This document shows, in pieces, positions 56-5,714 of a stretch of DNA of 5,714 nt. A program made the translations under genes and the position numbers. The stretch covers positions 1-5,714 of IMG/VR virus record IMGVR_UViG_3300045988_001675; one strand, given 5' to 3'. This stretch comes from a virus. The stretch's first letter is position 1. Each line of letters begins with the position of its first letter. The notes beneath the pieces are model-generated. The model worked only from the letters and a program-made list of their open reading frames with translations, had not been told where the DNA came from and did no database searches.

Positions 56-872
56 CTTCGCATGCAAACAATCGGGAAGGGCATATTTAGGCGCAGACCT
101 AAGCACTGTCACAGCAACAACAATTAACGACTTGCGAAACGCAGTTGCAGTACAGCAGTATTACGAAGCACTGGCGCGTGGTGGCAGCAGATACCGCGAA
201 CAGGTACAAGCACTGTGGGATGTGACAATCAGCGACAGAACGGTACAGATTCCCGAATATTTGGGCGGTGGACGCTATCACGTCAACATGAATCAAATCG
301 TCCAGACCAGCGGACAGCAGAGCGACAAAGATACCCCCATCGGCGAAACTGGCGCAATGTCAGTAACACCGGTGAACGAAGGATCCTTCACAAAGAGCTT
401 TGAAGAACATGGTTTCGTAATTGGTGTACTGTGCGTACGTCATAACAGAAGCTATCAGCAGGGACTTGAACGTTTCTGGAGCAGAACCGATAGACTTGAC
501 TACTATGTACCGCAGTTCGCAAATCTGGGAGAACAACCGGTTAAAAAGAAAGAAATCATGCTCACAGGCACGTCAACGGACGAAGAGACGTTCGGCTATC
601 AGGAAGCCTGGGCGGACTACCGAATGAAACCAAACCGTGTATCCGGCAAAATGCGCTCAAACGCATCAGGGACACTAGACTTCTGGCATTATGCTGACAA
701 CTACAAAGAAGTGCCAACACTGTCACAAGGCTGGATGATGGAAGACAAAAAAGAAATTGAAAGAACACTCATTGTTCAGAACGAACCGCAGTTCTTTGGA
801 GCAATCAGAGTGGCAAACAAGACCACACGTTGTATGCCGTTGTACAGTGTGCCGGGACTGAACAAGCTGTAA
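1..872 (+). CDS. VP1: Major capsid protein (Microviridae VP1 / F-family), C-terminal part; 5'-partial in this linear window and continuous with 4876..5714 across the circular junction
   Basis: The frame is open from base 3 to TAA at 870-872. The ORF-track start at 132 is only a TTG inside the open frame. The translation ...INDLRNAVAVQQYYEALARGGSRYREQVQALWDVTISDRTVQIPEYLGGG...GEQPV...YRMKPNRVSGKMRS... shows conserved blocks of microvirus capsid proteins. The reading frame matches 4876..5714 once the 55-nt duplication is collapsed (position p equals p+5659). The joined CDS is 1656 nt, 551 aa. Confidence 0.95.
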   Translation, partial: NGAITEEAEVSVTPNYADFACKQSGRAYLGADLSTVTATTINDLRNAVAVQQYYEALARGGSRYREQVQALWDVTISDRTVQIPEYLGGGRYHVNMNQIVQTSGQQSDKDTPIGETGAMSVTPVNEGSFTKSFEEHGFVIGVLCVRHNRSYQQGLERFWSRTDRLDYYVPQFANLGEQPVKKKEIMLTGTSTDEETFGYQEAWADYRMKPNRVSGKMRSNASGTLDFWHYADNYKEVPTLSQGWMMEDKKEIERTLIVQNEPQFFGAIRVANKTTRCMPLYSVPGLNKL

Positions 873-882
873 GAAAGGAGGA

Positions 883-909
883 AGCCCGGGTTTTGCCCGG
901 GCTATTTTT
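883..909 (+). terminator. Rho-independent terminator immediately after the capsid gene
   Basis: An 8-bp GC-rich stem, agcccggg (883-890) pairing with cccgggct (896-903), has a loop ttttg and is followed by a T5 run (905-909). It starts 11 nt after the VP1 stop codon. Confidence 0.8.
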
Positions 910-911
910 AA

Positions 912-1796
912 ATGGCAGGCTTAACAAAACTCTTAACCGCACTTAACATAGCAGGAAACGTTGCGAACACAGTCGGAACATTCGCAAATGCTGGAAAACA
1001 AATCGCAGGAGCGTTTGGAGGATGGGGGCAAACAGGCAACAGCCAAAGCAGCGGAGGAAGCACACAGCAAGGCGGTGGACACTCTGAAAGCGGAAGCCAA
1101 GCAGGAACAAACGTAAAACAAGTTGATGACTGGCTTAAACAGGCATATGCATACCAAGGACAAGAAAGCGCCATGCAGGGCAAATACAACAGCCAAAGTA
1201 TGTTAAAACAGATGGGATACAACACCTTACAAGCAATTATGCAGGGCGTATATAATCACATCGAAAATAACGTAGCCATGAACTACAACAGTGCAGAAGC
1301 ACTAGCAAACAGAGAATGGCAAGAACATATGTCAAACACGGCATATCAGAGAGCCGTAGAGGACATGAAAAAAGCAGGGATTAACCCAATACTTGCCTTT
1401 GCAAACGGAGGAGCAAGCACACCGGGAGGAAGTGCAGGGACAATCAGCGGAGCAAGTATGGGACTGGCAAGCAGCAGCGCACTTGGAGTAAGTCGAAGCG
1501 GTGGATTTGTCCCAAATGCATACGAAAGTTCGAGTTGGTCACAAAGTGACTGGTTTAACGCTGCACAAAGCTGGCAACAGATGCTCAGTACAACAAAAAT
1601 GACACCTTACGGACTACAGAAAACCTTAACCGAAATCGAAGACGGCACCGAAAAAGCAATCCAAAAGAGCGTAAACACCAATGCAAACAAAGGAAAAATC
1701 CAAGGAAGCACACACGGAAACAGAAAAAACGAAATGAGACAAGACAAAACGGGAAGTTACGGAGAAAAGAGAAAGCCAGGTGATTACTTAAAATGA
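912..1796 (+). CDS. VP2: Minor capsid / DNA pilot protein (Microviridae VP2, phiX174 H analogue)
   Basis: This is a 294-aa ORF directly downstream of the capsid gene. It has a hydrophobic/Gly-rich N-terminus followed by a G/S/Q low-complexity tract. The block NREWQEHMSNTAYQRAVEDMKKAGINPILAF is the conserved signature I recognise from gokushovirus VP2 proteins. The stop overlaps the Rep start (ATGA at 1793-1796). Confidence 0.9.
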   Translation: MAGLTKLLTALNIAGNVANTVGTFANAGKQIAGAFGGWGQTGNSQSSGGSTQQGGGHSESGSQAGTNVKQVDDWLKQAYAYQGQESAMQGKYNSQSMLKQMGYNTLQAIMQGVYNHIENNVAMNYNSAEALANREWQEHMSNTAYQRAVEDMKKAGINPILAFANGGASTPGGSAGTISGASMGLASSSALGVSRSGGFVPNAYESSSWSQSDWFNAAQSWQQMLSTTKMTPYGLQKTLTEIEDGTEKAIQKSVNTNANKGKIQGSTHGNRKNEMRQDKTGSYGEKRKPGDYLK

Positions 1797-2812
1797 GTTG
1801 TTACAAGCCATTAATAAGGCTGTACAACCCGAACGATAAAGACATTAGCGGGAGGGTGTATTCACTCTCCCGCTATTCTCAGTTAGCGGGAAAGCAGCTG
1901 AAATATGAAGATTTGATGTACAGAAAAGATGTCATGTTAATACCATGCGGACAATGCATCGGATGTAGAATCAGACAACGCGAGGACTGGACAACACGCA
2001 TAGAGCTAGAAGCAAGAGATTATCCGAAAGAAGAAGTATGGTTTATTACACTAACCTATAATGACGACAATGTACCGGGTATAATAGTCAAAACAGGGGA
2101 AATAATGCGAAAAGTGCAATACGTCTGGAAGCCGGGTGAGAAGCGTCCTGAAAGCGTCCAAACGTTGCTGTATACTGACGTTCAAAAGTTCTTAAAACGT
2201 CTCAGAAAGGCTTACAGGGGCAAACTACGCTATTTTGTAGCGGGAGAATACGGCGAACAGACAGCAAGGCCGCATTACCACATGATACTATATGGATGGA
2301 GACCGACAGACCTAGAGAATCTATACAAGATACACCACAACGGATACTATACCAGTAAATGGCTAGAAAATCTATGGGACATGGGTCAAATACAGATAGC
2401 GCAAGCAGTGCCAGAAACATATAGATACGTTGCAGGGTATGTAACCAAAAAAATGTATGAAATAGACGGAAAGAAGGGAAATGAATATTATGAACTAGGA
2501 CAACAAAAACCGTTCGCATGTATGAGCCTTAAACCGGGTCTAGGAGATAACTATTACCAAGAGCACAAAGCAGAGATTTGGAAACAAGGCTACATCCAGT
2601 GTACAAACGGAAAACGCGCACAAATACCACGCTATTATGAAAAAATGATGGAAGCTGAAAACCCACAAAGATTATGGAGAATTAAACAGAACAGACAAGC
2701 AGCAGCAATAGACGCAAACCGTAAAAAATACGAAAACACAGACTTTGCAGAACAATGCAAAACGAAAGAAAGAGTAATCAAAAAGCAGATGAAGAAGAGA
2801 GGGACACTTTAA
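1793..2812 (+). CDS. VP4: Rolling-circle replication initiator (Microviridae VP4, phiX174 A analogue; HUH endonuclease)
   Basis: This is a 339-aa ORF with a Cys cluster PCGQCIGCR near the N-terminus. Motif I is FITLTY (aa 84-89). The HUH motif is RPHYHMILYG (H161-Y-H163). The two-tyrosine motif III is YVAGYVTKK (Y212, Y216; compare phiX174 A YVAKYVNK). A SD-like aggtga lies 9 nt upstream of the ATG. Confidence 0.95.
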   Translation: MSCYKPLIRLYNPNDKDISGRVYSLSRYSQLAGKQLKYEDLMYRKDVMLIPCGQCIGCRIRQREDWTTRIELEARDYPKEEVWFITLTYNDDNVPGIIVKTGEIMRKVQYVWKPGEKRPESVQTLLYTDVQKFLKRLRKAYRGKLRYFVAGEYGEQTARPHYHMILYGWRPTDLENLYKIHHNGYYTSKWLENLWDMGQIQIAQAVPETYRYVAGYVTKKMYEIDGKKGNEYYELGQQKPFACMSLKPGLGDNYYQEHKAEIWKQGYIQCTNGKRAQIPRYYEKMMEAENPQRLWRIKQNRQAAAIDANRKKYENTDFAEQCKTKERVIKKQMKKRGTL

Positions 2813-2830
2813 AAGTGTCATGGTGTCACT

Positions 2831-2864
2831 TAGCCCAGTACCTATCAAGTAAGGTACTGGGCTA
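2831..2864 (+). terminator. 13-bp perfect hairpin 19 nt after the Rep stop; candidate terminator or structural element
   Basis: tagcccagtacct (2831-2843) pairs with aggtactgggcta (2852-2864) around the 8-nt loop atcaagta. The following sequence tattagatt is only moderately T-rich, so terminator function is uncertain. Confidence 0.4.
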
Positions 2865-2923
2865 TATTAGATTAAAAGCTCCATGTATCGCTTTATCCAG
2901 TCTATCAAATAGCTATACCTTAT

Positions 2924-2966
2924 CGCGTGTGCACACGCGCACGAAACGCGCACGCGTGCACGCGCG
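2924..2966. repeat. GC-rich imperfect inverted repeat made of two 20-nt perfectly alternating pyrimidine-purine tracts separated by aaa
   Basis: cgcgtgtgcacacgcgcacg (2924-2943) and cgcgcacgcgtgcacgcgcg (2947-2966) can pair over 20 positions: 16 Watson-Crick pairs, 1 G-T and 3 mismatches. The region contains nested perfect palindromes gcgtgtgcacacgc, gcacgcgtgc and gcgtgcacgc. Its composition contrasts sharply with the A-rich remainder of the genome. Confidence 0.75.
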
Positions 2967-3043
2967 GCCTTTTCGGCGCTATAGTTCGCAAGCTCACAAG
3001 CGCCGTATATTATATAAGTTGTTGTAGCCGTAGTAGTAGGAAT

Positions 3044-3218
3044 TGTGGAAAAGTTGATAAGTACTAAAATTTAACGTTAAAACGTAAATAAAAAAGAAAA
3101 AACCATGTTGAAAGTTTTGTTAAAAACTTGTTGAAATGTTAAAAGTTAGTCAAAATGACGAAAAACATTATGCAACATTTTGTGGAAAACCTGTTGAAAC
3201 TGTTGAAACTGTTGAAAA
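3044..3218 (+). repeat. Iteron-like array of about 10 same-orientation TGTTGAAA-type motifs, ending in a 3x tandem 9-mer (ctgttgaaa, 3191-3217)
   Basis: Exact tgttgaaa occurs at 3106, 3129, 3192, 3201 and 3210. The variant tgttaaaa occurs at 3118 and 3137, tgtggaaa at 3044 and 3181, and gttgataa at 3053. All copies are on the + strand in an AT-rich stretch that has no ribosome-binding sites. Confidence 0.8.
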
Positions 3219-3314
3219 CGCGCACGCGCGCAAGGAGTGGATTTAGCCGAGCTCCGCATACGCTACGCACGGCAAGGCGCTAAAGCGCCATTCAAACCAA
3301 AGGAAAAATAAAGC

Positions 3315-3343
3315 TTGACAAAACCAAAAAGGGATAATATAAT
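3315..3343 (+). promoter_or_regulatory. Consensus sigma70-type promoter for the peptidase/late gene block
   Basis: TTGACA (3315-3320), a 17-nt spacer and TATAAT (3338-3343) match the consensus at both hexamers with optimal spacing. This is followed by SD aggag (3364-3368) and ATG at 3377. Confidence 0.8.
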
Positions 3344-3376
3344 CAAAACAGCATAAGACAGAAAGGAGAAAACAGA

Positions 3377-3766
3377 ATGATTACAAGTTACATCGTAGAC
3401 ACAGACGGAAACGAAAAACTTGCAAGACACTTTAAGGTAAAAGAATTTGCTTGCAAAGACGGAAGTCCAATTGTATTCATTGATAACCATCTATACACCA
3501 TTCTAGACATCCTAAGACACGAGCTAGGAAAACCGATCATCATCACCAGCGGATACAGAACGCCAGAGTGGAACGCAAAATGCGGAGGAGCAAAATACAG
3601 CTACCATATGCGCGGTATGGCTGCAGACATCCGAGTCAATGGCATGAGCGCAAAAGCGCTTGCAAACAAACTAAATGAAATTGTACCGGATGAATGCGGA
3701 ATTATCGTATACAATGGCTGGGTGCACTTTGATGTGCGCAAAAGCAAATACAGAAAGGGGGTTTAA
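3377..3766 (+). CDS. Zinc D,D-/L,D-peptidase of the M15 (LAS / Peptidase_M15A-like) family; putative cell-wall hydrolase (endolysin-like)
   Basis: This 129-aa ORF has a strong SD. The motif order is typical of phage/bacterial M15 peptidases: FKVKEFACKDG ... LGKPIIITSGYRTPEWNAKCGGAKYSYHMRGMAAD ... GWVHFDVR. That gives the H-x6-D ... H zinc triad (H77, D84, H117, plus D119). There is no signal peptide or TM segment. Confidence 0.85.
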   Translation: MITSYIVDTDGNEKLARHFKVKEFACKDGSPIVFIDNHLYTILDILRHELGKPIIITSGYRTPEWNAKCGGAKYSYHMRGMAADIRVNGMSAKALANKLNEIVPDECGIIVYNGWVHFDVRKSKYRKGV

Positions 3767-3888: not shown

Positions 3889-4113
3889 ATGATGAAATCA
3901 TGGAATGTACGAGACCAGACCAAAGAAGATCTTGAAGAACTTTTAAAACGCAAAAATAAGGAGATAGACGGCAACTTCATAATGCTGAAAAAAATCTCAA
4001 ACATCAACGATACAAAGAAGCTGCTAGAAGAAATCTGGTACATGAAGAGATTTGCAAATGCAATTGAAATGGAACTAATCAGAAGGGAATACAGAAATGG
4101 CAAAACATCGTAA
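3889..4113 (+). CDS. Hypothetical protein (74 aa), charged and helical/coiled-coil-like
   Basis: The ORF is on the ORF track and on the same strand as all phage genes. Only a weak purine-rich SD (gaaagaag) is present. The sequence MMKSWNVRDQTKEDLEELLKRKNKEIDG... is lysine/glutamate-rich with no TM segment and no motif I recognise. Confidence 0.55.
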   Translation: MMKSWNVRDQTKEDLEELLKRKNKEIDGNFIMLKKISNINDTKKLLEEIWYMKRFANAIEMELIRREYRNGKTS

Positions 4114-4219
4114 AAAGATGAACGGCGCAAAAGACCGCCGTATGTTCAACATAACCGCACGCAAAACCAAAACTATCAACCTCAGTCAAAAGCCTATGCG
4201 CGGCGGCATCCGGCTGTAA
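4097..4219 (+). CDS. Small basic DNA-binding/packaging protein (phiX174 J / gokushovirus ORF8-like), 40 aa
   Basis: Manual translation from ATG 4097 gives MAKHRKKMNGAKDRRMFNITARKTKTINLSQKPMRGGIRL, with TAA at 4217-4219. It is very basic (K/R rich) with a C-terminal PMRGGIRL, which I recognise as typical of the tiny basic proteins of gokushoviruses. It overlaps the 3' end of the 74-aa ORF by 17 nt in another frame. It is below the ORF-track size cut-off. Confidence 0.8.
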   Translation: MAKHRKKMNGAKDRRMFNITARKTKTINLSQKPMRGGIRL

Positions 4220-4236: not shown

Positions 4237-4476
4237 ATGGGACACAACTACTACGGAATCTGGGATAACGTGGCAAAGTGCTACGCATGGGTAGGCGAAA
4301 GCAAGAACAACGCCACCTTTGCACGTATGTGCAACGTGATGGCAAAAGACGAAAAGACCTTCATCGGGCAGAGTCCGCAGGACTACACCGGCTTTAAGCT
4401 GGCAGTCTTCGAAGACGAAATCGGCACGTTCACGAACGACACAGAGAAGGTATGGGAGGGCAAGCCGAATGAATAA
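4237..4476 (+). CDS. VP5-like non-structural protein (79 aa), putative role in ssDNA synthesis/packaging
   Basis: SD aaggag sits 7 nt upstream of the ATG. The pattern YGIWDNVAKCY...NNATFARMC...SPQDYTGFKLAVFEDEIGTF resembles the conserved layout of gokushovirus VP5 proteins (x-D-x-K-A-x-x-Y ... A-x-R-x-F ... P-E-D-(F/Y) ... G-x-F-D-x-x-x-G). The assignment is from memory of the family, not from a search. Confidence 0.6.
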   Translation: MGHNYYGIWDNVAKCYAWVGESKNNATFARMCNVMAKDEKTFIGQSPQDYTGFKLAVFEDEIGTFTNDTEKVWEGKPNE

Positions 4477-4879
4477 ACGATACGAAGAAGGGCGAAAGCC
4501 CTTCTTTTCAAATCCGGGCGAAAAAGAACAGAAACAATACGTCTGGGCAAAAGACGAAAACGGGAAAGAGTACCTTCAGGAAACAGAACCTATCGACATT
4601 CAAGCCGAAATCGAAAGCTATGCAGACGAGTGCGATATAAAAAGCATCGTACGAAAAGCAAGTTTCGACCCGGAATTTCTAAAAAGTCTGTCACAAGGCG
4701 CATTAACCACAGAAGAAACGCCACTCGTGGACATCACGGAATTTCCGCAGAATATCCACGAATACCATCAAATGATTGCAACGGCACAGGCAAATGCCAT
4801 TAAACTGGCAAAACAACAGGAAATGGCAAAAGCAGAGCCTGAGCAGAAAACCGAAGTAAAGGAGGAAAAGAAAGAATGA
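4469..4879 (+). CDS. VP3: Internal scaffolding protein (gokushovirus VP3-like), 136 aa
   Basis: It sits immediately upstream of the capsid gene and is translationally coupled to it (ATGA at 4876-4879). It overlaps the preceding ORF by 8 nt. It is an acidic, helical protein with a K/E-rich C-terminal tail, of size and character typical of VP3 scaffolds. Motif-level recognition is moderate only. Confidence 0.7.
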   Translation: MNKRYEEGRKPFFSNPGEKEQKQYVWAKDENGKEYLQETEPIDIQAEIESYADECDIKSIVRKASFDPEFLKSLSQGALTTEETPLVDITEFPQNIHEYHQMIATAQANAIKLAKQQEMAKAEPEQKTEVKEEKKE

Positions 4880-5714
4880 ACAGAAACAACGAAAGGCACT
4901 TTCTGAACGTACCACAGATGCACACCAGCAGAACACGTTTCAATCGTGACCAAACGATTCTTACCACGTTCGACAGCGGAGCACTAATTCCATTCTTTGT
5001 AGACGAAGTATTACCGGGCGACACCTTCCAAGTGAATACAAGTGCTATCATCCGTATGAGTACGCCAAAATATCCGGTTATGGATGACGCATTCATTGAC
5101 TTCTACTATTTCTACTGTCCAAACAGGATCATCTGGGATGACTTCAAAAAGTTCATGGGAGAAGCAGATGAAACGCCTTGGGAACCCAACAAGACGTATA
5201 AAGTGCCACAAATCCAGCTTGGAACCGGAGAAAAAGACGGATTAGCACAACCGTACGAAGGAAGCGTGCTTGACTATATGGGAGTGCCTACAAAAAGCAT
5301 ACCATCCGGAACTAAAGCGGAAAAAGTCAACGCACTGCCGGTAAGAGCATATGTAAAAATCTGGAATGAATATTTCAGGGATCAAAACGTAGACAATCCG
5401 GCAACGCTGAGAACGAACAGCGAGGACATCGATTACGGTGACCGTGCCGACAGCACGAGCTTAGAATTGGGCTGGGCAACAGCATACAGCGGTGGCAGAT
5501 GCCTACCGGTAAACAAATTCCACGACTATTTCACAAGCTGTTTGCCATATCCACAGCGAGGACCGGAAATTAAATTGCCGATATCAGGAAATGCAGCAGT
5601 AAGAGGATATAAAGACTTGAATTACAAAAATGTAATCCAAGCAAACGTCATACCCGTAATCAACGGAGCGATAACAGAAGAAGCAGAAGTAAGCGTAACA
5701 CCAAATTACGCAGA
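4876..5714 (+). CDS. VP1: Major capsid protein (Microviridae VP1 / F-family), N-terminal part; 3'-partial in the window and continues at 1..872
   Basis: ATG at 4876 is preceded by aggagg (4860-4865). No stop occurs before the window end, which is why it is absent from the ORF track. The translation MNRNNERHFLNVPQMHTSRTRFNRDQTILTTFDSGALIPFFVDEVLPGDTFQVNTSAIIRMSTPKYPVMDDAFIDFYYFYCPNRIIWDDF...ALPVRAYVKIWNEYFRDQNV... is an unmistakable microvirus capsid N-terminus. Confidence 0.95.
   Translation, partial: MNRNNERHFLNVPQMHTSRTRFNRDQTILTTFDSGALIPFFVDEVLPGDTFQVNTSAIIRMSTPKYPVMDDAFIDFYYFYCPNRIIWDDFKKFMGEADETPWEPNKTYKVPQIQLGTGEKDGLAQPYEGSVLDYMGVPTKSIPSGTKAEKVNALPVRAYVKIWNEYFRDQNVDNPATLRTNSEDIDYGDRADSTSLELGWATAYSGGRCLPVNKFHDYFTSCLPYPQRGPEIKLPISGNAAVRGYKDLNYKNVIQANVIPVINGAITEEAEVSVTPNYA
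5660..5714. repeat. Right copy of the exact 55-nt terminal duplication (identical to 1..55)
   Basis: A base-by-base match to 1..55. The capsid reading frame is preserved through the junction. Confidence 0.95.

Follow-up and report, generated by a model that had tools for sequence, protein, structure and literature searches.

The IMG/VR record IMGVR_UViG_3300045988_001675 (hereafter the window, i.e., the whole stretch of 5,714 nt that was analyzed) represents the complete circular genome, 5659 nt long, of a gokushovirus and has a terminal redundancy of 55 nt. Positions 1-55 and 5660-5714 are exactly identical, which indicates that the window is a circular assembly; overlaps of a similar 55-nt type are found on many related contigs. 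All genes lie on the plus strand (Table 1). Besides an HUH Rep (VP4) and a peptidase, they encode only the capsid, scaffold, and pilot proteins and comprise four small open reading frames (ORFs). A small basic protein is encoded at 4097-4219. The gap between the VP4 and peptidase genes spans 564 nt, about 10% of the circle, whereas the genes at the remaining junctions overlap or are 2-39 nt apart. We describe here this gap and, within it, a module of 213 nt (3006-3218) that is a look-alike of the unwinding module of the bacterial origin of replication, oriC.

A preliminary description of this DNA had presented the gap as an oversized, organized, and non-coding region, and these observations hold. 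The half-sites, hairpins, GC tracts, AT repeats, and promoter that it listed are all present, with the GACAC/GTGTC sites at 2805-2828 around the VP4 stop codon, and the GC content is 21-29% across 3000-3200. Folding as single-stranded DNA (ssDNA), a check that it had proposed, gave -82.6 kcal/mol for positions 2800-3376 against -63.4 +/- 4.8 kcal/mol for shuffles (z = -4.0), i.e., the gap is more structured than its shuffled versions. We found no tRNA in it with ARAGORN and no match to an Rfam family in a scan with E-values up to 10. It is most improbable that the gap codes for small proteins, for example from 3155-3283 (42 aa) or from ORFs on the minus strand. Of 65 relatives, 59 have the ATG at 3155, and in just as many the frame is open to the end of the module, but composition alone accounts for this open frame, because the TGTTGAAA repeat has no stop in two of the three frames. 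The variable columns of the gap alignment are spread evenly over codon positions (22/20/19), which leaves no codon periodicity, and the segment is inverted or moved in many genomes. The small ORFs of the gap were rejected because they lack this periodicity, have no Shine-Dalgarno sequence in front, and show length differences among relatives that are not multiples of three.

Layout of the oriC-like module

Read on the minus strand, the left end of the module runs TTATCAAC-TTTTCCACA-ATTC-CTACTACTAC-GG-CTAC-AACAAC-TTATATAATATA, and the module as a whole falls into eight box-like 9-mers, two tandem boxes, a 4-nt spacer, CTA-CTA-CTA trios, and an A+T tract. This order and its polarity are, judged by sequence, those of the "basal unwinding system" (BUS) of oriC, where tandem boxes, a 4-bp spacer, trios, and A+T DNA form the described layout (PMC8287927, PMC8235120, PMC7561715). 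The spacer between box and trios is GC-rich and of about 4 bp in the literature (PMC8287927, PMC8235120), and the AT-rich region of bacterial origins adjoins the trios in the same placement as 3006-3017 (PMC8235120, PMC7561715). In the window, the box next to the trios (TTTTCCACA) has one mismatch to TTATCCACA and none to TTWTNCACA, and perfect trios stand at 3025-3027 (one) and 3031-3039 (three). On the plus strand, TATATTATATAA and the TAG trios are found 5' of TGTGGAAAA. This is the polarity of E. coli oriC, which we checked in the annotated sequence, in which R1, read as TGTGGATAA, has the AT-rich 13-mers on its 5' side.

The published rule for finding a BUS asks for a box with at most two mismatches, a spacer of 0-16 bp, and at least three NAN trios (PMC8287927). 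The box that adjoins the trios of the module stays within two mismatches of TTATCCACA, the spacer falls within 0-16 bp and has the typical length of about 4, at least three consecutive trios with a central A follow the consensus 3'-GAT-5', and box, trios, and A+T DNA succeed one another on one strand. Hence, at the sequence level, the module has every feature by which a BUS is recognized. A BUS also resides in a chromosomal origin, usually by dnaA; the module is located in a phage genome of 5659 nt, between the VP4 and peptidase genes, and we therefore class it as BUS-like and not as a chromosomal oriC. The scanner used here allowed one mismatch in the box, a spacer of 0-16 nt, and at least three NAN trios. 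It found no box-spacer-trio combination in the rest of the window genome, and none of 2000 shuffles of the module yielded a box followed by three or more GAT trios across a spacer no longer than 16 nt. Among 68 relatives found through VP4, at least three perfect GAT trios across a 1- or 4-nt spacer were detected in 58 (56 with 4 nt). The box beside the trios has at most one mismatch to TTWTNCACA in 64 of the 68, and the spacer is of 4 nt in 58 of the 64 that gave a scanner match.

The same parts, in the same order and polarity, make up the BUS of B. subtilis incC, C. difficile oriC2, and H. pylori oriC2, i.e., a consensus box with a weaker box in tandem, a 4-nt spacer, three to five trios of 3'-GAT-5', and A+T DNA. 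The trio run of C. difficile, 5'-CACCTACTACTATTACTACTATGA-3', is preceded by boxes and followed by the unwinding element (PMC7561715), and it has the same CTACTACTA string as the module. Unlike the bacterial systems, the module is found in a 5.7-kb ssDNA phage and not by dnaA, its A+T tract is only 12 nt long, most of its distal boxes are of the TTTTCAACA variant, and it behaves as a portable cassette that occurs at two positions and in both orientations.

The box-like 9-mers total ten, have the form TGTKGAAAN, share one orientation, and lie within 175 nt. The genome has two perfect matches to TTWTNCACA, both inside the module, and a 9-nt unit is repeated in three tandem copies at 3191-3217. 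The string TTTCMACA occurs seven times, always in 3044-3217 and on one strand, for 0.57 occurrences expected genome-wide, a count that none of 200 shuffles equaled. When 3006-3218 is folded as ssDNA, only two small palindromes pair and the boxes remain unpaired in the centroid structure; since all ten are direct repeats, they are unable to pair with one another.

Table 1. Positions of genes and other features in the window, and of comparable arrays on other contigs
Feature	Position	Strand	Description
VP1 gene	4877 across junction to 872	+	
VP2 gene	912-1796	+	
VP4/Rep gene	1793-2812	+	
Peptidase M15 gene	3377-3766	+	Followed by four small ORFs
VP3 gene	4469-4879	+	
Palindrome at the VP4 stop	2803..2819		GACACTTTAAAAGTGTC; spans the VP4 stop codon (2810-2812); weak minus-strand terminator-like flag only
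GGTGTC(A) and perfect 13-bp hairpin	2822..2864	+	Arms 2831-2843 / 2852-2864, loop ATCAAGTA
Two alternating GC tracts	2924-2943, 2947-2966		20 nt each, perfectly alternating pyrimidine-purine, AAA between; left module boundary
Hairpin CGGCGCT / AGCGCCG	2974..3005	+	7 bp, 18-nt loop; abuts the A+T tract; in minimum free energy and centroid ssDNA folds
A+T tract	3006..3017		TATATTATATAA; 12 nt, 100% A+T; candidate DNA-unwinding element
DnaA-trio run	3019..3039	+	TTG TTG TAG CCG TAG TAG TAG; 5'-TAG-3' = 3'-GAT-5'
Spacer	3040..3043		4 nt; GAAT in the window, family consensus GGGC
DnaA box 1	3044-3052	-	TGTGGAAAA, reverse complement TTTTCCACA; perfect to TTWTNCACA
DnaA box 2	3052-3060	-	AGTTGATAA; tandem to box 1, 2 mismatches
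Palindrome	3070..3081		TTTAACGTTAAA; inside module, conserved as TTTAACG
Box group 2	3106-3145	-	TGTTGAAAG 3106-3114; TGTTAAAAA 3118-3126, degenerate; TGTTGAAAT 3129-3137; TGTTAAAAG 3137-3145, degenerate
Palindrome	3149..3159		GTCAAAATGAC; stem conserved, loop variable
Box group 3, perfect box	3181-3189	-	TGTGGAAAA
Box group 3, head-to-tail 9-nt array	3192-3200, 3201-3209, 3210-3218	-	TGTTGAAAC / C / A
Right alternating tract	3219..3232		CGCGCACGCGCGCA; right module boundary
Hairpin with compensatory changes	3246..3273	+	Always in gene orientation
Hairpin GGCGC-TAAA-GCGCC	3276..3289	+	Outer pair GC/GU/AU, inner 4 pairs invariant
Promoter TTGACA-17 nt-TATAAT	3315-3343	+	Sole 12/12 sigma-70 consensus match in the genome
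Ruminococcus box clusters	L194 about 2680-3280; L193 about 530-1110		
Canonical copies on viral contigs	L238 about 12777-12801; L208 about 1208-1232; L230 390-411; L210 3822-3843; L197 711-732		

Conservation, orientation, and neighboring hairpins

We searched 50,697 phage records by megablast with the genome and by blastn with the gap, and IMG/VR with the VP4 protein. More than 150 genomes of related gokushoviruses have the region in conserved form, which agrees with the preliminary view of an organized replication-control region rather than junk. Dozens of unannotated gokushovirus genomes among the phage records, from the gut of humans, pigs, and monkeys, have the gap, and in several GenBank genomes (H21-H24) positions 3006-3304 are the only part detectable by megablast. 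The VP4 search retrieved 80 close relatives with 86-95% identity in this protein, nearly all of which have the gap. In the close relatives the block 3006-3218 is always present and its flanks are modular, with the GC tract(s) or the 2865-3005 segment missing or replaced in many of them. Alignment with relatives, recommended in the preliminary description, shows the region to be conserved with modular flanks and the module to be inverted in some genomes; the proposed GC/AT/GC frame is not essential, as one or both GC tracts are missing in many relatives.

To quantify conservation, we used an alignment of 65 unique copies found via VP4 only, a set that is for this reason unbiased toward the gap. 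The columns that are invariant or at least 90% conserved spell TAACTTGTTGTAG-nn-GTAGTAGTAG and the ten 9-mers TGTKGAAAN, whereas the DNA between trios and boxes drifts, as it also does among 146 unique copies. In the 3106-3145 group, for instance, the boxes are 90-100% conserved and the spacers 40-70%. This argues for purifying selection acting site by site on boxes and trios, as would be expected of a sequence-specific function. A 23-nt core pattern retrieved more than 120 further genomes, with VP4 36-79% and VP1 about 34-56% identical to those of the window, and the core is exact in genomes whose VP4 is only 36-58% identical. By these comparisons, the DNA module is far better conserved than the phage proteins.

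The module is on the strand opposite to the one it occupies relative to the genes of the window in 31 of 167 genomes. It is reversed against its flanks in 6 of 71 close relatives, and in L004, L030, L033, L046, and L061 it is inverted between the alternating tracts. In a lineage with about 37% VP4 identity (L086; GenBank KT264784), it is inverted with respect to the genes and lies in the VP2-VP4 interval. Reversed copies are mostly about 88-92% identical to one another (L030 about 80%) and 71-78% identical to the forward type. They are carried on VP4 backgrounds interspersed with forward types, e.g., L019 and the forward-type L024 share 96.8% identity in VP4. Since the orientations represent diverged sequence types, they seem to be old alleles and not the result of active flipping, and the interspersed backgrounds indicate that the inverted allele was exchanged by recombination. 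The pattern, as read from these alleles, is one of cassette exchange through recombination and not of flipping in place. The tolerance of both orientations and of two positions points to a site acting on duplex DNA rather than to a signal on the packaged strand.

An invertible switch, a selfish cassette, or a recombination hotspot without a role in replication might account for the inverted repeats flanking the module (2950-2962 / 3219-3231), for the occurrence of both orientations among close relatives, and for the recombination of the inverted allele between VP4 backgrounds. We regard such an element as very improbable, since the orientations are diverged types, no recombinase is encoded, boxes and trios are selectively conserved while spacers drift, and the cassette has no copies outside gokushoviruses in plasmids, nor in genomes except for box arrays (see below). 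Active inversion was rejected as the main explanation on the first of these grounds. A plasmid origin was rejected because blastn gave no match to the module among 72,556 plasmids. Among 185,579 species genomes, we found no integrated relatives with VP4, and the module pattern matched only a free microvirus contig of 5.8 kb, two clusters of boxes in bacteria, and, by coincidence, a coding repeat (VENVEN) within an ORF of L192 near chemotaxis-receptor genes. A prophage or attachment site was rejected accordingly. We also dropped a dif-like resemblance at 3006-3020, noticed by eye, which had no support and for which no dif model was run. Some gokushoviruses have dif-like motifs for XerCD integration, and long-term carriage of circular phage DNA without integration has been described (PMC7062461). 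Those phages (Kirchberger and Ochman 2020) likewise carry a functional motif in their non-coding region; for the present group, no prophage copies were found in the species genomes searched.

The AT/trio end of the module has a largely consistent polarity relative to the GGTGTC(A) motif and the hairpin that follows it. This motif and hairpin are present in all lineages, with stem sequences that are wholly different and yet pair. In a set pre-selected for having a stem, 8 of 12 pairs show compensatory changes, 93% of the cells pair, and none of 500 shuffles equaled this. CAAG is always found in the loop. The hairpin of the lineage with about 37% VP4 identity is just upstream of VP4 and past a separate canonical terminator, and it is thus unlikely to be merely the terminator of VP4; a terminator role is also less likely because the hairpin has no T run and was unflagged by the terminator scan. 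The GGTGTC-hairpin is probably the origin used by Rep (VP4), for which it is the best candidate. It resembles the double-strand origins of HUH Reps (phiX174 gene A, pC194-type) in having a covarying stem and a conserved loop beside the Rep gene. On the minus strand, the loop contains the only CTTGATA of the genome, which is the nick-site core of phiX174 and pC194-type origins. Unlike in these origins, it is on the non-coding strand, and the likeness, which concerns 7-8 nt, serves as a lead only. We found no mapped nick site for any gokushovirus. The loop motif CTATCAAGTA (2842-2851) recurs 60 nt downstream as CTATCAAATA (2902-2911, plus strand), with 9 of 10 identical positions and outside any hairpin.

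Of 131 genomes, 123 (94%) have the module with its AT/trio end toward the GGTGTC-hairpin. The facing module is downstream of the hairpin in 101 genomes, at a median of 138 nt, and upstream in 22, at 26 nt. This suggests that DnaA-driven opening and the hairpin may be functionally coupled.

The alternating GC tracts at 2924-2966 are prone to form Z-DNA or cruciforms. They constitute an imperfect inverted repeat of 3219-3231 (85% complementarity between 2950-2962 and 3219-3231), and the right tract has 16 of 17 nt in common with 2944-2960. The alternating property is kept with a different sequence in many relatives, but the tract is absent in L001, L019, L085, and L086, and the 2974-3005 hairpin is absent from several relatives. 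Further downstream, RNAalifold applied to 22 variants revealed compensatory changes in the 3246-3273 hairpin at the pairs 3246-3273 (GC/UA), 3251-3268 (GC/AU, 7 sequences), and 3252-3267 (UA/CG, 9 sequences), with no broken pair. This segment is never reversed, even beside a reversed module. Together with the hairpin at 3276-3289, it is the best remaining candidate for a strand-specific signal, e.g., for priming of the complementary strand.

The preliminary description had likened the region to signals for the conversion of ssDNA into double-stranded DNA (dsDNA). Under this explanation, the AT field and GC hairpins would form a complementary-strand origin on the packaged strand, of the type of the phiX174 primosome assembly site (PAS) or of the G4 and M13 origins. 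The fold of the whole gap relative to shuffles and the three hairpins with compensatory changes and fixed orientation fit such an origin. If the coding-sense strand is packaged, as in known Microviridae, then in the majority orientation it would also carry the TAG-trio strand that DnaA binds as ssDNA. However, the boxes are direct repeats that stay unpaired in the fold, the field is on the other strand in the 31 genomes mentioned above and at another site in one lineage, and the GC tracts are dispensable, which makes this explanation improbable. The PAS, the minus origins of G4 and M13, and the single-strand origins of plasmids are similar in that they occupy the main intergenic region of an ssDNA replicon and recruit host factors; they differ in being strand-specific, folded ssDNA, whereas the field of the module is unstructured and its strand is not fixed. 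Neither a stable ssDNA structure nor a fixed orientation is found for 3006-3218, and such structure is present only in the separate hairpins at 2831-2864 and 3246-3289. Hence, the idea fails for the AT field, and may still apply to the hairpins at 2831-2864, 3246-3273, and 3276-3289.

A box within a hairpin stem enables DnaA to initiate priming on ssDNA, as at the "A site" of the ABC primosome. The window differs in that none of its hairpin stems has a box. We observed in L085 (about 1855-1885) and L086 (about 3165-3190) a convergent box pair, TGTGGAAAA ... TTTTCCACA, at the distal end of the module. This pair, absent from the window, could form an ssDNA hairpin with a box in its stem, similar to an "A site".

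The flanks of the conserved elements vary in other ways. Close relatives have between about 440 and about 1000 nt separating the stop of VP4 from the start of the peptidase gene, and the extra DNA after the conserved hairpins (e.g., in L024, L019, L004, L033, and L061) contains more promoter-like sequences and small ORFs. The junction between module and peptidase gene looks like a hotspot for gene gain. The peptidase M15 is 47-87% identical to that of the window in genomes where VP4 is 86-95% identical (L001-L080). This spread indicates that the peptidase gene is exchanged independently of Rep and adds to the evidence for a mosaic structure around the non-coding region. In the window, the perfect promoter is followed by a Shine-Dalgarno sequence, AAGGAG (3363-3368), and by the ATG of the peptidase gene (3377). 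A canonical intrinsic terminator, AGCCCGGGTTTTGCCCGGGCT followed by ATTTTT, lies at 883-903 between VP1 and VP2 and is the only terminator-like site of the plus strand. The lone perfect promoter and this terminator suggest a single long transcript that is attenuated past the capsid gene. Finally, the 5' part of the VP4 gene has an inverted repeat, AGCGGGAG...CTCCCGCT, at 1843-1911 (hairpin at about 1847-1874). Its loop has GGTGT, echoing the GGTGTC of the origin-like hairpin, and it gave a sub-threshold Rfam match to Termite-leu (E = 0.75) that is probably due to chance.

Related arrays and the nature of the repeats

To search for comparable sequences in bacteria, we scanned one genome per species for the tandem-repeat pattern. 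This identified two syntenic contigs of Ruminococcus metagenome-assembled genomes (MAGs), in which an intergenic region of about 700 bp contains 21-24 boxes in both orientations. Perfect TTTTCCACA boxes are interleaved there with TTTTCAACA in the same head-to-tail arrays, and there are no phage genes nearby. The genes bordering these regions are transcribed divergently; they are an 87-aa ORF, DUF6512, and a SpoU methylase at one end and a gene with a VTC domain at the opposite end. A 38-nt stretch of the module (3181-3218) is 92% identical, with the same spacing, to arrays in both regions. We found no clear run of TAG trios in these clusters, and the GC skew across 8 kb was uninformative. The Ruminococcus cluster could be a displaced oriC or a cluster that titrates DnaA.

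Viral contigs were scanned with the pattern TAGTAGTAG-N(0-8)-TGTGGATAA. Contigs of dsDNA phages carry canonical copies with clusters of up to ten boxes, for example AT-rich-GTAGTAGTAG-GGGC-TGTGGATAA-TGTGGATAA. These copies have an AT-rich part, (TAG)n, GGGN, a TGTGGATAA box, and a second box that is TGTGGATAA, or GTTGATAAG in L208. The latter is the second box of the gokushoviruses, and canonical clusters also hold TGTTGATAA. The tandem arrangement of the window, ...TGTGGATAAGTTGATAAG..., has its canonical counterpart on L208 as well. Genes for a DnaB helicase and an O-type phage initiator are found on contig L238 and a gene for RecT on L208; L197, L210, and L230 are contigs of 95-160 kb in which the neighboring ORFs have no Pfam hits. 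The family consensus of the gokushovirus module, GTAGTAGTAGGGGCTGTGGAAAA, equals the canonical GTAGTAGTAGGGGCTGTGGATAATGTGGATAA at every base but the A/T position inside the box. Hits on small contigs were rejected as canonical-box BUS of microviruses, being single chance matches. These copies raise the possibility that DnaA-trio origins are widespread in phages.

Are the repeats DnaA boxes? Among relatives, G and T alternate at the variable box position within the same alignment columns, and some genomes have the canonical TGTGGATAA or TGTTGATAA where others have the variant box (e.g., TGTGGATAA in L091). The Spo0A-type box TGTCGAA does not occur once among about 1400 boxes in 146 modules, and Spo0A boxes were rejected because the C typical of them is absent from every box. 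The interchange of G and T, the mixed Ruminococcus arrays, the canonical copies of dsDNA phages, and the lack of Spo0A boxes make it reasonable to read the variant 9-mers as putative DnaA boxes, and this remains the weak point of the analysis.

The repeats might instead be iterons for a protein other than DnaA, such as VP4, the small basic protein, or another host factor, in which case the likeness to oriC would be coincidental or partial. It is in favor of iterons that the dominant repeat is not a consensus DnaA box and that the repeats, like iterons, are direct and short, with a spacing of about one helical turn. Yet a phage-encoded partner should co-vary with its sites, and the module is near-constant while VP4 identity varies over 36-58%. 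Furthermore, the 5.7-kb genome has no plasmid-type Rep, consensus and variant boxes swap in the same alignment columns, the Spo0A-type sequence is missing as stated, and the perfect trio geometry is hard to explain by coincidence. Plasmid origins of the iteron class have iterons of 17-22 bp and their own initiator, whereas here the repeats are 9-mers and the only Rep is of the HUH type. We consider iterons for another protein to be rather unlikely.

Several observations weigh against a role of DnaA. The commonest 9-mer, TGTTGAAAN (reverse complement NTTTCAACA), deviates at a normally conserved C, the strict consensus gives just two perfect boxes in the window, and matches to TTWTNCACA with at most one mismatch are not enriched genome-wide (11 found for 13 expected). 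The box signal is thus local and dependent on the variant box. The A+T tract is short (12 nt) and hemmed by GC-rich DNA in the window genome. One pattern scan revealed no canonical-box version of the module in other microviruses. The Ruminococcus clusters are not by dnaA, their flanking genes are neither dnaA nor dnaN, and their status as origins is putative. Seven genomes show the opposite polarity toward the GGTGTC-hairpin, and the orientation rule rests on only two or three independent rearrangements. Lastly, it is not evident why a phage that encodes a rolling-circle Rep should require DnaA.

Possible functions and significance

On balance, we favor, with some reservation, the interpretation that the gap is a phage replication-control region whose core (3006-3218) is a DnaA-recruiting, oriC-like opening module. 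Incoming ssDNA would be converted into the double-stranded replicative form, on which host DnaA-ATP would bind the perfect boxes and spread cooperatively across the weak boxes of the same orientation. A DnaA oligomer would then form on the TAG-trio strand and melt the adjacent AT tract. Once open, the DNA could serve to load the helicase and primosome of the host, so that the replicative form would be copied by the initiation machinery of the host, and/or it could expose the neighboring GGTGTC-hairpin for nicking by Rep (VP4). As a side effect, ten boxes on a multicopy replicative form would soak up DnaA. The other elements would be accessory: the flanking GC tracts possibly as supercoil-sensitive boundaries or recombination joints, and the two downstream hairpins possibly as a strand-specific priming signal.

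The arrangement of the boxes recalls E. coli oriC, where low-affinity DnaA sites of the same orientation lie beside R1. In its left half, the AT-rich element is likewise 5' of a box read as TGTGGATAA, and both systems combine one or two strong boxes with weak 9-mers of the same orientation about 9-12 bp apart, which suggests cooperative filling. Unlike E. coli oriC, the module has no 13-mers and no opposing right half, and sites for IHF or Fis were not recognized in it.

The module could also be only a DnaA sponge, which would titrate host DnaA and thereby block re-initiation or alter DnaA-regulated transcription without opening phage DNA. Ten boxes on the same strand within 175 nt would suit this function, which should be indifferent to orientation and position, as is observed, and the Ruminococcus clusters, being away from dnaA, could be titration loci themselves. 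The loci that titrate DnaA in E. coli (datA) and the clusters of B. subtilis are likewise dense groups of boxes outside the chromosomal origin. However, they are not described with a trio run and an unwinding tract, which is the best-conserved part here. A sponge would need neither trios nor an AT tract, yet the trio run, the 4-nt spacer, and the AT flank are the most invariant elements, and the AT/trio end keeps its polarity toward the hairpin. We therefore hold a mere sponge to be unlikely.

A stronger form of the opening-module interpretation is that the module is a working miniature oriC. Host DnaA and the helicase loader would then sustain Rep-independent, minichromosome-like replication, and these gokushoviruses, which lack an integrase, would have a plasmid-like carrier state alongside lytic rolling-circle replication. 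We consider this possible but doubtful.

In a full-text search limited to open-access papers, we found no work linking Microviridae or gokushoviruses with DnaA boxes and no description of DnaA-trios in phage genomes. The remark in the preliminary description that no such element has been defined for gokushoviruses stands within the searchable open-access literature, and to our knowledge no replication origin has been defined for these phages. The present analysis offers concrete and testable sites, namely the candidate Rep hairpin, the module of DnaA boxes and trios, and two hairpins of fixed strand. Since none of the proteins of these phages matches the module in conservation, the latter is a practical marker for them. 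The mixture of TTTTCAACA and TTTTCCACA, common to the Ruminococcus MAG loci, is a new kind of host clue. A self-contained unwinding module of 213 bp is also of interest to research on minimal origins.

Gokushoviruses are among the most abundant phages of the gut. If the module were indeed a miniature oriC, this would be the first ssDNA virus shown to have a chromosomal-type DnaA-trio origin, and it would provide a ready-made minimal replicon for uncultured gut Firmicutes, in which the box variant would report the host lineage. If DnaA acts at this site, a rolling-circle ssDNA phage would also plug into the chromosomal initiation of its host, and, if true, this could help explain the long persistence as circles of phages that lack an integrase (cf. 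PMC7062461).

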